DNA of 64,000 nt from Escherichia coli (GCF_003018115.1 NZ_CP027457.1), one strand, 5' to 3'. Shown: positions 4,639 to 12,769, counted from the stretch's first letter. Notes: generated from the letters alone by a model not told the origin. Translations and numbers: made by a program.

Positions 4639-5187
4639 TTATTGATACTGAACCTTGAAGGTCGCATCCGCATTAGCTGCGCCAGGGGTTGCGACACCGG
4701 TTGCATAATAACGCGCCTGGAACGGAATGGTGTTAGTACCGTTATTCAGGGTTGTTTGCTCACTGAATGTCGCACCATCCAGCGTCAGCGCAGCACCCGT
4801 TCTGTCCAGGATCTGCACACCAACGTTTGTTGCGCTACCCGCAGCTGAACTCTGCAGAGCCAGAACGTTGGTATGACCCGCATCAATCGCCGTACCTAAA
4901 AAGGCAACTGCGGCTTTAGATGCAACATTGGTATCGCAATCATTCAGCTGAATGTTAAAACCGACAGCAGAACTGGTTGCTCCTTCCTGTGCCAGCGATG
5001 CGGTACGAACCTGTCCTAACTGAACGGTTTGATCAACAGAGCCTGCATCAACTGCGCAAGCGGCGTTAACAACTTCCCCTTTAAAGTGAACGGTCCCACC
5101 ATTAACCGTCGTGGCAGCGGCCAGAGCCGCTGTAGAACTGAGGGACAGAGCCGACAGAACAACGATTGCCAGAGTTTTAATTTTCAT
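4639..5187 (-). CDS. fimA: Type 1 fimbriae major subunit FimA
   Basis: Track ORF 4639..5244; start [23 protein letters not shown] at 5187 gives a 182-aa major pilin. Confidence 0.92.
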
Positions 5188-5306
5188 GCTGCTTTCCTTT
5201 AAAAAAACTATTTCTAAATCGACATGGGCAGTCGTTCTGTACACTTTGTTTTGTCAACGAGTTTGACTGCCAACACTGCACAGTTTTCCCCCAAAAGATG
5301 AAACAT

Positions 5307-5667: not shown

Positions 5668-6264
5668 TCAAACCTCTTCTCTTTTTAATTTTTCGTTTAT
5701 GAGATTATTTCTTTCCCATAATCCGGCAAAACGAGCAGCATTACTGGCGGTATAACGCACAGTATGGCGAATATTTCGATGCCCGAGATAATCCTGAATT
5801 AAACGAGTATCTGCACCACGCTCCGCCAGTTCATAACCGCAAGCATGCCTTAACATATGAGGATGAGTCTGCGTTACGGTTCCAGCTTCAATACCGGCAT
5901 CGCGAATAATGCGATAGGCCTGCTGGCGAGAAAGCCGACTCCCGCGGCGAGAAATAAATATGGCGTCGGTCCGGTCAGCGCCTTTCCAGTTAGCACGTTC
6001 CAGGGTCCAGCGTTCCACAGCTTCACGCTCATCAAAACGTAACGGGTGAACGGTAGAAAATCCGTTCTTCAGTCGGCGAATATTTATTCGACCTTCATTA
6101 AGGTCAAGATCCTGATAATGCAGATCAAGCAGTTCACTAATACGCATCCCATGCCGATATGCCAACAGAATAAGACAATAATCTCTGGCTCCCGTTGCCC
6201 CGTAACAAACCGCCTGCATCATGGCCTGAACTTCTTTACCGGTAAGATAACGACGTTTACTCAC
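5668..6264 (-). CDS. fimE: Tyrosine site-specific recombinase FimE (switch ON-to-OFF)
   Basis: 198-aa ORF starting MSKRRYLTGKEVQAMM with the conserved HxxR...Y recombinase C-terminus; adjacent to fimS. Confidence 0.93.
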   Translation of the reverse strand: MSKRRYLTGKEVQAMMQAVCYGATGARDYCLILLAYRHGMRISELLDLHYQDLDLNEGRINIRRLKNGFSTVHPLRFDEREAVERWTLERANWKGADRTDAIFISRRGSRLSRQQAYRIIRDAGIEAGTVTQTHPHMLRHACGYELAERGADTRLIQDYLGHRNIRHTVRYTASNAARFAGLWERNNLINEKLKREEV

Positions 6265-6741: not shown

Positions 6742-7344
6742 CTATAAAACAGCGTGACGCTGTCGTCCTCTGGCTCTATCCCAGATGCCGTAAAAACGCC
6801 CTGCATTGCTGGCGGTATACCAGACAGTATGACGAATATTGCGATGCCCAAGATAATCCTGGATAAGTCGCGTATCTATTCCCATATTCGCCAAAGCAAA
6901 ACCACACGAATGGCGTAACATGTGCGGATGAATCTCCAGTGACAACCCGGCATTACCACCGGAAGTCGAGATAATATGGTAAAATTGTTGCCGAGAAAGC
7001 GGATTCCCCTTACGCGATAAAAATACCCACTCGCTCTCAGCATGCGGATACGAAGTACGGATACTCAACCAGTTTTTTAAAGCCTGAACTTCTTTGTTCA
7101 ATAGCGGGTGCGTTGTTGAAAAGCCTTTTTTTAATCGATGGATATATATACACTTTGCCTTAAGATCAATATCCGAAATCCTCAATCGACAAATTTCACT
7201 CGCCCGGAAACCATGAATAAAACAAAGCAAAGTCAGACAATAATTACGTGCTGCATGAGGCCCGGTATTTGCTGCTTTAAGGAGTGATTCGATTTCACTA
7301 TGGGTCAGGAAGTTCCTTTTTTTGTTTTCAGCCTTATTCTTCAT
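6742..7344 (-). CDS. fimB: Tyrosine site-specific recombinase FimB
   Basis: Track ORF 6742..7374; start MKNKAENKKRNFLTHSEIE at 7344 gives 200 aa; paralogue of FimE. Confidence 0.92.
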   Translation of the reverse strand: MKNKAENKKRNFLTHSEIESLLKAANTGPHAARNYCLTLLCFIHGFRASEICRLRISDIDLKAKCIYIHRLKKGFSTTHPLLNKEVQALKNWLSIRTSYPHAESEWVFLSRKGNPLSRQQFYHIISTSGGNAGLSLEIHPHMLRHSCGFALANMGIDTRLIQDYLGHRNIRHTVWYTASNAGRFYGIWDRARGRQRHAVL

Positions 7345-8359
7345 CGTTTTTCCCTTATAATTACAGACGCGCACTAGCTGTGCTGGGTTAGCAATAATCC
7401 AACATTTTTATCCTGATTATGTTTATAAAAGCGAACGTTTGCTTAATAACTAACGTAAGTGGACCAGTTCTTCTGAGTGAACTTAAATGGAGTAGCAACA
7501 GTTAATTATAATAACGTTGCCATACAAACGCTATGCTCTTGCATGCTATGTACCTTTATATATTTATCAATCGGATACGAATCTAATAATAACCCTCATC
7601 ATTAATGCAACTAATCTTATCTATATATCATGTGATATGTTCTGTAACAAGTAAAATCAACATAAAAAATTCAGCAAAATTTAATATTCGTTCAACTAGC
7701 CGTCTCACATATGACATTATTAGTCAACTCCATTTGCCACAAAATGGCTATTTCATGGAACACAGTAATTTCTTAGTGGCTATTATCAAGCTAATTCTTA
7801 GGTCCCTAGCGATTATTCCTGGCTGGTTCGTCAGTTTAAGCCATGAGATTGTTACATTCCTTTTTATCCTGGAGATATGGGGGAACGCAGGAGACGATTT
7901 TTTCATCTACATTCGTTGGTAAATATGGCTTTGGTCACTGCGACTTAAACCTTCCTCAATCACAGCCATTCGCCGGGCGATACGGCAAACAAACTAAGTG
8001 AAACATCATCCTGAAAACACCAACATCAACAAGCCTCTCCAGATCGACTTCAGAAGTGACCAGTTACAAGCCACAAACCAGGAAACATATTTCATGATGA
8101 GAATTATGCTCAGCCTGATGGCGGGTAAACACTGATTTTCATCAAACTCACTGAGTTAGCTTGCAAAGCTTTCCTTGTTTAGACTCTAAATAAATTATTT
8201 ATAAAACAAATATTTAAACGAAGATCTTTAGTTTTTGAAGACCACCGCAAGTGTTCGTCTGGCTTCACATGGCATCTTCCTCTTAGAAAAAGATCGACAT
8301 ATTTTGTGACACGAATTGCAAATCTGGTTTTGTTGTATGGATTGCGTGATTTTTGATCT

Positions 8360-8378
8360 GGTATAACAGGTATAAAGG
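8360..8378. promoter_or_regulatory. Putative NanR operator (tandem GGTATA repeats: GGTATAACAGGTATAAAGG) in the fimB-nanC intergenic region
   Basis: Two GGTATA hexamers spaced as in NanR operators, read directly; location in the long AT-rich intergenic region known to carry NanR/NagC sites controlling fimB and nanC. Confidence 0.5.
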
Positions 8379-8788
8379 TGCACCAAGATAGTCAATGAGA
8401 CAGGGCATCTCGCAATCTCTGGCAAACATCACTTCAGTTCTTTCTCATCGGGTGATGAAAACGCACTTCAGTCTGAAAGGAATATGAAAATGAGATCAAC
8501 AGACACTCTATTTTATGACTCTGGGTAAAATGAATTGAGTAAGTGATATAGCTTACGAACATTCAAATCAATTAAACATCAGAAGAGATTTTATACTCAG
8601 GTATTTAATCTGGCTCTCTGTTTATTTAAATAATGTGGAAAGAGAATTTTCACAGGAGACCTTATACAAAAAATATAAAATAAGCTACCCGTTGCCAAAG
8701 ACACTATAAGCCTGGCAAAAAATATTACACAACATAAATGCTAATTGTTTATGCGGGCTTTGTTTTGCTTTCTGTATCCTACAAATGA

Positions 8789-9514
8789 GTGAAATTTATG
8801 AAAAAGGCTAAAATACTTTCTGGCGTATTATTACTGTGCTTTTCGTCACCATTAATTTCTCAGGCTGCGACACTGGACGTACGTGGTGGATATCGTAGCG
8901 GAAGCCATGCCTATGAGACTCGACTCAAAGTCAGTGAGGGATGGCAAAATGGATGGTGGGCAAGCATGGAAAGTAATACCTGGAATACCATTCATGATAA
9001 TAAAAAGGAAAATGCCGCACTCAATGATGTTCAGGTTGAAGTTAATTACGCGATTAAACTTGATGAGCAATGGACGGTGCGCCCGGGAATGTTAACGCAT
9101 TTTAGCAGCAACGGCACACGCTACGGACCCTACGTAAAACTGTCCTGGGACGCGACAAAAGATCTTAATTTTGGCATTCGCTATCGTTACGACTGGAAAG
9201 CTTACCGACAACAAGACTTATCCGGTGATATGTCTCGTGATAACGTTCATCGTTGGGATGGATATGTCACTTACCATATTAATAGTGATTTCACCTTCGC
9301 ATGGCAAACGACGCTATACAGCAAACAGAACGATTATCGCTATGCAAACCATAAGAAATGGGCGACGGAAAATGCATTTGTTCTACAATACCATATGACG
9401 CCCGATATTACGCCATACATAGAATATGACTACCTGGACCGTCAGGGTGTTTACAACGGCAGAGATAATTTATCGGAAAACAGTTATCGCATTGGTGTGT
9501 CATTTAAACTGTAG
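8789..9514 (+). CDS. nanC: N-acetylneuraminic acid outer membrane channel NanC (KdgM family)
   Basis: 241-aa ORF with signal peptide ...LLLCFSSPLISQAATLDVRGG and beta-barrel porin-like sequence ending in F-K-L. Confidence 0.9.
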   Translation: MKFMKKAKILSGVLLLCFSSPLISQAATLDVRGGYRSGSHAYETRLKVSEGWQNGWWASMESNTWNTIHDNKKENAALNDVQVEVNYAIKLDEQWTVRPGMLTHFSSNGTRYGPYVKLSWDATKDLNFGIRYRYDWKAYRQQDLSGDMSRDNVHRWDGYVTYHINSDFTFAWQTTLYSKQNDYRYANHKKWATENAFVLQYHMTPDITPYIEYDYLDRQGVYNGRDNLSENSYRIGVSFKL

Positions 9515-11839: not shown

Positions 11840-12769
11840 TTGAACAGCAGAAAATTTGCGAGCATGATCGCAATTATTTCACTGCCAGGGATATCAATGG
11901 CTTCCAGTAAATCGCTACAGCAGGCAATTGCCAACATAAAAATCTGGCACAAGGGTGAACAGCGCGCGCCGCATAAGCCATTGTTATTGCTATACGTATT
12001 AGCGGGATACCTGAATGGACATCCACGCCTTTTCGATTATGGCTCGGAAATCTACGAACCTCTGCACAGTTTACTGGAACGTTTTGGGCCACAGCGTTCA
12101 CAGTACCGACCTGATATGCCGTTCTGGCGATTACAAGGCGACGGATTCTGGCAATTACACAATGCCGAGCTTTGCTCAACAGCAGGGAGCAGCCGACAAC
12201 CGCCAGTGAAGGAACTGAACGAATACCACGTTGCAGGCGGTTTCGATGAACAGCACTACGCCCTGGTAACCGGCAATAAAAAACTCATTAATACTCTGGC
12301 ACAACAGATACTCGAAGCGCACTTCACCGAGAGTATTCAGGAAGAAATCGCTGACGAGTTGGGTTTTGACCTCCAGCAAATCCGTAAGCAACGCGACCCG
12401 TTATTTCGCAGACTTGTATTACGCGCCTATAACTACCAGTGCGCGATATGTGGCTTTAATATGCGCCACGATGACACTACCGTCGCGCTGGAAGCGGCAC
12501 ATATAAAATGGAAACAGCACGGCGGTCTTTGTGAAATTCCTAATGGCCTGGCGCTTTGCGCAATTCACCATAAAGCCTTTGATAAAGGATCGATTGGCCT
12601 GGACGAAAATATGCGGGTACTGGTATCAGATGCGGTAAACGGCGGAGGGATCGTTGAGAGATTATTCTGGGATTTTGACGGGAAAACTATTGCGTTACCA
12701 CAGGTGCGTAAAAATTACCCTTTTGAGGGGTTTGTAGAGTGGCATCGGAAAGAGGTTTTTAGGGGGTGA
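11840..12769 (+). CDS. HNH-motif endonuclease with an uncharacterised N-terminal domain (possible modification-dependent restriction-type nuclease)
   Basis: 309-aa ORF; C-terminal YQCAICGF...AAHIKW...LCAIHHKAFDKG is a Cys/His HNH-type motif. An alternative start MASSKSLQQ at 11897 has an AGGGA RBS. Family assignment of the N-terminal domain is not possible by eye. Confidence 0.7.
   Translation: MNSRKFASMIAIISLPGISMASSKSLQQAIANIKIWHKGEQRAPHKPLLLLYVLAGYLNGHPRLFDYGSEIYEPLHSLLERFGPQRSQYRPDMPFWRLQGDGFWQLHNAELCSTAGSSRQPPVKELNEYHVAGGFDEQHYALVTGNKKLINTLAQQILEAHFTESIQEEIADELGFDLQQIRKQRDPLFRRLVLRAYNYQCAICGFNMRHDDTTVALEAAHIKWKQHGGLCEIPNGLALCAIHHKAFDKGSIGLDENMRVLVSDAVNGGGIVERLFWDFDGKTIALPQVRKNYPFEGFVEWHRKEVFRG

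Follow-up and report, generated by a model that had tools for sequence, protein, structure and literature searches.

Why do the divergent genes fimB and nanC of Escherichia coli stand so far apart, and what is the tandem GGTATA element that lies in the AT-rich DNA between them? We took up this question in a 64,000-nucleotide stretch of DNA from a non-K-12 strain (NZ_CP027457.1; hereafter the window, with positions counted from its first base), for which an original prediction, made from the sequence alone, had proposed a NanR-type operator in the fimB-nanC interval. The interpretation that we consider very probably right is that fimB and nanCMS share this interval as their control region, as is already known, that 8360-8382 is the NanR operator O_NR, and that the region works by the mechanism proposed below.

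The interval between fimB and nanC

6742..7344, minus strand: fimB coding sequence, from the ORF list, the Pfam Phage_integrase match (E 2e-58) and the annotation of homologous records; ATG at 7344
8798..9514, plus strand: nanC coding sequence, KdgM porin family in Pfam (E 5e-28), annotated nanC in homologous records; ATG at 8798

FimB is the tyrosine recombinase that switches fimS from OFF to ON. Its gene lies here on the minus strand together with the other type 1 fimbrial genes of this reversed block (fimA 4639-5244, fimE 5668-6264, fimB 6742-7344). On the other side, nanC encodes the N-acetylneuraminic acid outer-membrane channel and is the first gene of nanCMS, with nanM and then nanS following it on the plus strand. 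The genes of the two regulators, nanR and nagC, both lie outside the 64-kb window. The divergent arrangement of fimB and nanC that had been proposed is one on which open reading frames, Pfam and homologous annotation agree. Measured from ATG to ATG, the interval runs from 7345 to 8797 and is 1,453 bp long (1,455 bp in MG1655); the limits given earlier, 7375-8788, are the ends of the longest open reading frames, with GTG starts, and the difference is immaterial. The interval was also described as AT-rich, and its GC content is indeed 36.0%, as against 49.2% for the window and ~43% for fimB and nanC themselves.

The description of the interval as long and non-coding likewise holds, as we found no conserved ORF in it. 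Its length could in principle be explained by an unannotated gene or a structured RNA, with the GGTATA element being incidental. The longest ORF in the interval, 7605-7922, has 105 codons, and in one strain PGAP annotates a 'hypothetical protein' there, which would speak for such a gene; but this ORF gave no match in a Pfam search, and indels of 1 bp and 12 bp interrupt it in K-12, O111 and B2 strains. The RNA side of this explanation is weighed below with the nanC leader.

The tandem GGTATA element

8360..8382, plus strand: NanR operator O_NR, composed of GGTATA (8360-8365), ACA, GGTATA (8369-8374), AA and GGTGCA (8377-8382)

The tandem repeat that had been reported, GGTATAACAGGTATAAAGG, was located exactly at 8360-8378 on the plus strand. 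It extends to a 23-bp operator, GGTATAACAGGTATAAAGGTGCA, at 8360-8382, which consists of two perfect repeats and one degenerate third repeat, GGTGCA, with 4/6 matches to GGTATA. The 64 kb hold a single copy of the arrangement GGTATA-N2-3-GGTATA, and 100 dinucleotide-preserving shuffles yielded none; similarly, GGTATAACAGGTATAAAGGTGCA is the sole match in the 64 kb at three or fewer mismatches to the nanA-type (GGTATA)3, and again none of 100 shuffles contained one. Single GGTATA hexamers showed no enrichment in the window (25 observed against 18.5 +/- 4.5 expected), which means that the signal resides in the tandem arrangement and not in the hexamer.

The spacers of O_NR, 3 nt and 2 nt, are those of the nanA and nanX operators. 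According to the binding study of Horne et al. 2021 (PMC8012715), NanR needs no fewer than two direct GGTATA repeats at 2-3 nt spacing and binds less well when the spacers are 6 nt longer. The KD of NanR was 25 nM on two repeats and 20-39 nM on three, with no binding to a single repeat, and two complexes formed on two-repeat DNA as against three on three-repeat DNA (PMC8012715). Since nanomolar binding takes only two repeats, a degenerate third unit is compatible with function, and the feature separates sub-types of the operator and does not decide membership. The third unit is degenerate in the K-12 nanC operator too. nanCMS is one of three operons described as bearing a NanR operator (Horne et al. 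2021, PMC8012715; Vimr 2013, PMC3658417), and genomic SELEX places a NanR peak in the nanC/fimB spacer (PMC5934670, PMC4797297). The assignment of the operator, which the original prediction had offered as its own inference, is therefore backed by identity to K-12, by the published coordinate, by the 20/23 match to nanA and nanX, and by SELEX.

In the same SELEX work, NanR was still bound at the nanC/fimB spacer with Neu5Ac present (PMC5934670), and a simple release model leaves this Neu5Ac-resistant binding unexplained. One SELEX review gives NanR regulation with the opposite sign (PMC4797297).

It might be argued that the tandem GGTATA is a functionless chance occurrence in AT-rich DNA, given that single hexamers are near chance (25 against 18.5 expected). 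We give no credence to this view: the tandem form is absent from all 100 shuffles, the operator is identical to that of K-12 and invariant across strains, it is common to two other NanR-controlled promoters and to nanA operators in dozens of genera, and it sits at the published coordinate.

The fimB start and the published coordinates

7615, minus strand: fimB transcription start, derived from the SlyA operator coordinates and not mapped here
7783..7809, minus strand: SlyA operators O_SA1 (7783-7794) and O_SA2 (7798-7809), sequences from PMC3173223

We anchored the fimB start through the published positions of the SlyA operators (McVicker et al. 2011, PMC3173223), which come from the same laboratory as the primary mapping of the sites. 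There, O_SA1 (TTAGCATGATAA) is placed at -179 to -168. The two SlyA operators, which overlap H-NS sites, together occupy the span from 194 to 167 bp before the fimB start (PMC3173223). With the derived start at 7615, both published SlyA ranges fit within 1 bp and the 5' UTR is 271 nt long. O_SA1 carries a natural variant at 7789, reading TTAGCTTGATAA here and TTAGCATGATAA in K-12, with A, T or G at this base among 10 strains.

The original prediction had singled out comparison with experimentally defined NanR coordinates as the way to check it. On the scale of the derived start, O_NR spans -745 to -767, and the published position is 'around 760' (PMC3173223). The outer edges of the mapped sites as a whole, -767 and -471, likewise agree with the published range of 760 to 470 (PMC3173223).

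These distances bear on an alternative in which O_NR is a promoter-proximal repressor site of nanC only, the response of fimB being indirect, for example through changes in local supercoiling or H-NS occupancy as a result of nanC transcription. Such an arrangement would suit the ~750 bp that separate O_NR from the fimB start, as well as the fact that the promoter cassette described below is common to nanA and nanX, both purely repressed targets. Furthermore, H-NS covers the DNA around the fimB start, from ~500 bp upstream of it to 150 bp downstream (PMC3173223), and the physical mechanism of fimB activation has been described as unknown (PMC5401889). However, the laboratory that mapped the sites reports that NanR and NagC activate fimB via O_NR and O_NC1 plus O_NC2, and that fimB is expressed less in nanR and nagC mutants (PMC3173223). 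With these reports on the other side, we regard a nanC-only operator as quite improbable. The sequences past O_NR on the nanC side are also reported to be dispensable (Sohanpal 2007), which would count against it too.

The NagC sites

8298..8320, no strand assigned: NagC operator O_NC1 (published 'fimB1'), CATATTTTGTGACACGAATTGCA, the exact reverse complement of the published site (PMC3098098)
8086..8108, no strand assigned: NagC operator O_NC2 (published 'fimB2'), CATATTTCATGATGAGAATTATG, the exact reverse complement of the published site (PMC3098098 Table 1)

The known NagC sites fimB1 (TGCAATTCGTGTCACAAAATATG) and fimB2 (CATAATTCTCATCATGAAATATG) are listed in the FITBAR paper (PMC3098098 Table 1). 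Relative to the derived fimB start, O_NC1 lies at -683 to -705 and O_NC2 at -471 to -493, and their centre-to-centre distance is 212 bp. A 212-bp spacing of the NagC sites is reportedly given in the abstract of Sohanpal et al. 2007 as well.

A NagC site is a 23-bp quasi-palindrome in which only TT/AA at +/-5,6 is invariant, with C/G at +/-11 in high-affinity sites (PMC4288165). Both O_NC1 and O_NC2 have the TT/AA, and at +/-11 O_NC2 has C and G, while O_NC1 has C at -11 only. We built a NagC PWM from the eight non-fim sites of PMC3098098 Table 1 and scanned it over the 64-kb window. O_NC2 scored 20.2 bits and ranked first in the 64 kb, with 0.4% of shuffles reaching this score; O_NC1 scored 12.0 bits and ranked fifth, with 23% of shuffles reaching its score, which is not significant alone. 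The exact matches to both published sites bear out the part of the original prediction that concerns the GlcNAc regulator.

By the TT-N9-AA rule alone, the interval contains 15 candidates, including two alternative pairs ~212 bp apart. One such pair, 8272-8294 with 8059-8081 (213 bp apart), was rejected: both members score negatively with the PWM (-8 and -16) and are polymorphic among strains, and the site at 8059-8081 differs between LF82 and MG1655, two strains that reportedly do not differ in the published sites.

IHF-like cluster and Dam sites

8189..8216, no strand assigned: IHF-core-like cluster of three matches, each with one mismatch to WATCAANNNNTTR, and an A/T tract; candidate IHF bend site
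8292..8295, no strand assigned: Dam site GATC, 2 bp from O_NC1, lost in 3 of 10 strains (O111, R1, E89)
8355..8358, no strand assigned: Dam site GATC, 1 bp upstream of O_NR, invariant in 10 strains

The IHF-like cluster is centred on the midpoint (8203) of O_NC1 and O_NC2 and is polymorphic among strains. IHF-like matches are not enriched in the window, with 79 found against 65 expected. The position of the cluster agrees with that of the IHF site reportedly described by Sohanpal in 2007.

Similarly, GATC is not enriched in the fimB-nanC interval (5 sites against ~5.7 expected), and it is only the placement of the sites that is notable. NagC is reported to protect its site from Dam (Sohanpal 2004). 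GATCT also precedes the K-12 nanA and nanX operators. In a Dam-methylation study, NanR binding was found within 5 bp of a GATC at nanA, nanC and yjhB (PMC5155068), and NagC protection of GATC from Dam has been cited (PMC11316696).

The promoter cassette and presumed leader of nanC

8305..8320, plus strand: CRP-like 16-mer TGTGACACGAATTGCA, overlapped by O_NC1, centred 61.5 bp upstream of the predicted nanC start
8362..8374, plus strand: putative nanC promoter core, by homology with nanA, with -10 TATAAC at 8362-8367 and the start at about A8374
8375..8797, plus strand: presumed 5' leader of nanC, ~420 nt long and homologous over its first ~190 nt to that of K-12 nanX

How does O_NR stand to the promoter of nanC? 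The centre of the CRP-like 16-mer lies 46.5-47.5 bp upstream of the operator at nanC, K-12 nanA and K-12 nanX alike, and the CRP-like site upstream of nanA operators is conserved across Enterobacterales. nanC is reportedly activated by CRP (Condemine 2005), and it is also under OmpR and CpxR control. In K-12, the nanA ATG stands only 40 nt past the nanA operator, so that the nanA start must lie within or just after the operator. From this geometry and the conserved distance between CRP site and operator, we infer that the -10 and start of nanC fall inside the operator, and thus O_NR would overlap the nanC promoter at both elements. The same start puts the CRP-like site at -61.5, the standard class I position. 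A scan with the sigma-70 consensus found no promoter at the operator, and just two weak minus-strand matches, fewer than in shuffles; an activator-dependent promoter whose -35 is poor would be expected to escape such a scan.

The original prediction had the sialic-acid and GlcNAc regulators acting at long range on both genes. This stands for fimB, but it probably does not for nanC: as O_NR overlaps the predicted nanC promoter and the ~415 bp to the ATG would be leader, only the action on fimB is truly distant.

The nanC and nanX regions are collinear in two blastn blocks, 8303-8379 at 84% (E 9e-21) and 8434-8563 at 60% (E 4e-6), and the ATG follows the operator after ~415 nt in nanC and 411 nt in nanX. 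The leader is better conserved among E. coli strains than the DNA around it, and within it 8420-8640 has few polymorphisms among ten aligned strains. There is also a mini-ORF, MKMRSTDTLFYDSG, at 8484-8528, of 12-14 codons with a Shine-Dalgarno-like AGGA. It can be hypothesized that the ~420-nt leader is transcribed and has a regulatory role of its own, as an sRNA target, through the translated mini-ORF, or by carrying OmpR/CpxR sites. If so, it would add a post-initiation layer to the sialic-acid control of the porin. Nothing that speaks positively for a function of the leader was found, and we would call this role unlikely, if still a conceivable one.

The same region provides the remaining argument for a hidden gene or structured RNA in the interval, since 8420-8640 is unusually conserved and holds the short ORF with its AGGA. 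Against this, an Rfam search of the fimB-nanC interval including the leader gave no family at E <= 1, RNA folding of the leader was no more stable than that of shuffles (z = 0.30), and the two polymorphisms inside the mini-ORF are both non-synonymous. Moreover, the GGTATA element has an explanation of its own. That a hidden gene or RNA accounts for the length of the interval is thus very improbable indeed.

Conservation among strains and species

The whole interval is ~98% identical to that of MG1655, with changes at base 7789 of O_SA1 and several between the NagC sites, and all the K-12 differences are outside the NanR and NagC sites. The stretch 8221-8418, which contains O_NR, is base-for-base identical to K-12 MG1655. 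The best match to the interval is strain F8111-1SC3, at 99.9%. Of 5,426 complete E. coli genomes, 5,109 carry the interval, mostly at 95-99% identity, and 5,089 carry a 91-bp core, 8296-8386, which has at least 99% identity in 3,947 of them.

An alignment of 10 E. coli strains (the strain of the window, K-12, O157, O111, two B2-like and four others) gives a finer view. O_NR with its GATC, O_NC1 and O_NC2 are invariant in all 10 except for an edge base of O_NC2, 8108, and variation in the interval is greatest in the DNA between the NagC sites, 8108-8290, where as many as 22 columns in 50 vary. Binding sites under constraint, with a looped spacer constrained mainly in its length, would be expected to leave this pattern.

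Beyond E. coli, an exact 20-mer scan of 100,044 species genomes, one for each species, found 90 loci across Enterobacterales, nearly all of the nanA type. The nanA operators of other genera have natural third units reading GGTATA, GGTATG, GGTACA, GGTCTA and GGTAGG, so that degeneracy of this unit is common among them. A nanC-type context of the 20-mer was not found outside E. coli in these 100,044 genomes, so that there is no cross-species footprint of the fimB-nanC arrangement. The sequences and coordinates, the identity to K-12 and to the published sites, the uniqueness of the element and its conservation are direct observations.

Proposed mechanism and significance

For binding by NanR and NagC at O_NR, O_NC1 and O_NC2, and for the direction of regulation, we follow the literature. 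Dimers of NanR, a GntR-family regulator responsive to Neu5Ac, would bind the two perfect GGTATA repeats cooperatively, and possibly GGTGCA weakly. Bound at O_NR, NanR would occlude the overlapping nanC promoter and repress nanCMS, and Neu5Ac would weaken the binding and lead to induction. NagC, responsive to GlcNAc-6-P, would bind O_NC1 over the CRP-like site as well as O_NC2, with a bend between them, and so modulate nanC. In the other direction, NanR at -745 to -767 and NagC at -683 to -705 and -471 to -493 would serve as distant activators of fimB, such that sialic acid or GlcNAc would result in less FimB and less OFF-to-ON switching of type 1 fimbriae. The bound regulators may also shield the GATC beside O_NR and that beside O_NC1 from Dam. 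No sequence feature contradicting the O_NR explanation was found.

Host mucus is a source of free sialic acid and GlcNAc, and both are also set free in the course of inflammation. The region couples nutrient sensing to adhesion: the sialic-acid porin operon goes up, FimB goes down, and fewer cells are fimbriated. This coupling at fimB-nanC has been established for K-12 since 2003-2007; the original finding is correct and already known, and the accepted picture is unchanged. What is added here is that the NanR operator, both NagC sites and the NanR-side Dam site are intact and base-identical in a non-K-12 strain, that the operator and the NagC sites are invariant across diverse E. coli, and that the cassette is duplicated among nanA, nanX and nanC. 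The conserved ~420-nt nanC leader, partly common to nanX, is a possible new thread.

Comparison with known systems

The closest known system is O_NR of the K-12 nanC-fimB region (PMC3173223), which has the same sequence, the same position relative to fimB and the same O_NC1, O_NC2, GATC and SlyA neighbours. The operator itself shows no difference at all, and only the host strain is non-K-12. The module described here is the K-12 O_NR/O_NC1/O_NC2 module itself and not a relative of it.

Next come the other two NanR operators of K-12. Those of nanA and nanX (yjhB) both read GGTATAACAGGTATAAAGGTATA, and the nanC operator is identical to them at 20/23 positions and differs only in its third unit. 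The nanA operator (nanATEK-yhcH; PMC8012715) shares with nanC the spacers, the GATCT prefix and the upstream CRP-like site. Unlike the nanA operator, with its ATG 40 nt off, O_NR stands ~415 nt before the ATG, and it also serves the divergent fimB, ~750 bp away, as an activating site. The closest paralogue is nanXY (yjhBC) of K-12, with which nanC has 77 bp in common at 84%, from the CRP-like site through the promoter and GATC to the operator, as well as ~130 nt of homologous leader; the nanX operator has three perfect repeats and is without a fimB partner. nanXY is absent from the window, and the closest genome lacks KpLE2 between nanS and leuX. Judged by sequence likeness, O_NR is part of a promoter cassette, comprising CRP-like site, GATC and operator, that is duplicated among nanA, nanX and nanC.

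On the NagC side, the two-operator looping systems nagE-nagB, chb and glmU also have two 23-bp quasi-palindromes with TT/AA at +/-5,6. There as here, whole helical turns (212 bp in this region) separate the operators, and a bend site, here a candidate one, lies between them. The difference lies in the outcome, in that NagC represses an overlapping promoter in nagE-nagB, chb and glmU, whereas here it activates fimB from ~470-700 bp away.

Polymorphism within the fimB-nanC interval

The interval between the divergent fimB (minus strand) and nanC (plus strand, ATG at 8798) contains the following sites, in window positions:

7783-7794, SlyA operator O_SA1 of fimB, overlapping H-NS sites
7821-7900, indel-rich stretch
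8292-8295, GATC (Dam site)
8298-8320, NagC operator O_NC1
8360-8382, NanR operator
8484-8528, mini-ORF in the presumed nanC leader

The SlyA operator O_SA1 has a natural variant at position 7789, where the window strain has TTAGCTTGATAA and K-12 has TTAGCATGATAA, and the alignment of 10 diverse E. coli strains shows A, T or G at this position. Measured against the SlyA consensus, TTAGCAAGCTAA, the window-strain form is one step farther away than the K-12 form, and the variant could affect SlyA/H-NS control of fimB.

The part of the interval richest in indels is 7821-7900, where TCAGACTGTGTA (12 bp) is inserted at 7864 in B2-like strains and 1-bp indels occur in several strains. In strain 08A21CPO005, the PGAP annotation places a 131-codon "hypothetical protein" here (358-753 of locus L099, its homologous region), and the indels argue against this being a real gene.

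The GATC adjoining O_NC1 is absent from O111:H-, strain R1 and strain E89 (loci L095, L097 and L098), being replaced by TATC, TACC or TATA, unlike the Dam site on the NanR operator side, which does not vary. If methylation protection counts in fimB control, these three strains would be without the NagC half of that protection.

Within the presumed nanC leader, the mini-ORF reads MKMRSTDTLFYDSG, with AGGA 9 nt upstream of its second ATG. The aligned position in the nanX leader is likewise an ATG, though with a longer ORF. Since the two polymorphisms inside the nanC mini-ORF are both non-synonymous, it bears no sign of coding constraint.

Flanking sequence and related loci

In some genomes, represented by NZ_OZ547122.1 (locus L102), an IS1 element stands in place of the entire fim cluster, and the replacement takes in fimB as well as the 263 bp of intergenic DNA closest to it. 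From the IS1 junction on (window position 7608 onward) the sequence is intact, and the retained NanR/NagC module and nanCMS adjoin gntP.

Downstream of nanS (11840-12769 and beyond), a small island occupies the place where K-12 has the KpLE2 element. Proteins encoded in this part of the window are:

HNH_2-domain protein of the island, intact, 309 aa
hypothetical protein, 678 aa, adjoining tRNA-Leu

In the closest genome (locus L103), the annotation of the HNH_2 counterpart reads "phosphorothioated DNA-binding restriction endonuclease" and marks it as frameshifted. The nanXY genes are not present within the 64-kb window.

Two public assemblies (loci L008 and L074) appear to contain E. coli contamination: an "uncultured Bacteroides" MAG has a 3.3-kb contig with exactly the sequence of the operator and its surroundings in the nanC-fimB region, and Methylobacterium mesophilicum NBRC 15688 has a 265-bp contig bearing the operator region of E. 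coli nanX (yjhB).

A shared promoter cassette

In E. coli strain E69 (CP089930.1, locus L083), a nanC-type promoter cassette has GGTACA as its third repeat, and the sequence diverges completely immediately 3' of the operator, which suggests that a divergent Escherichia lineage has a different downstream context here, or one that was rearranged.

Comparison of window positions 8303-8563 with the K-12 nanX region (L003, 5568-5838) and the K-12 nanA region (L002) shows a duplicated cassette, including the NanR operator, with these parts:

CRP-like site
promoter
GATCT
operator
leader start

The operator lies ~410-415 nt from the ATG in both nanC and nanX, and their leaders are homologous over the first ~190 nt. 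The cassette is common to nanC and nanX, and nanA has a shorter version of it.
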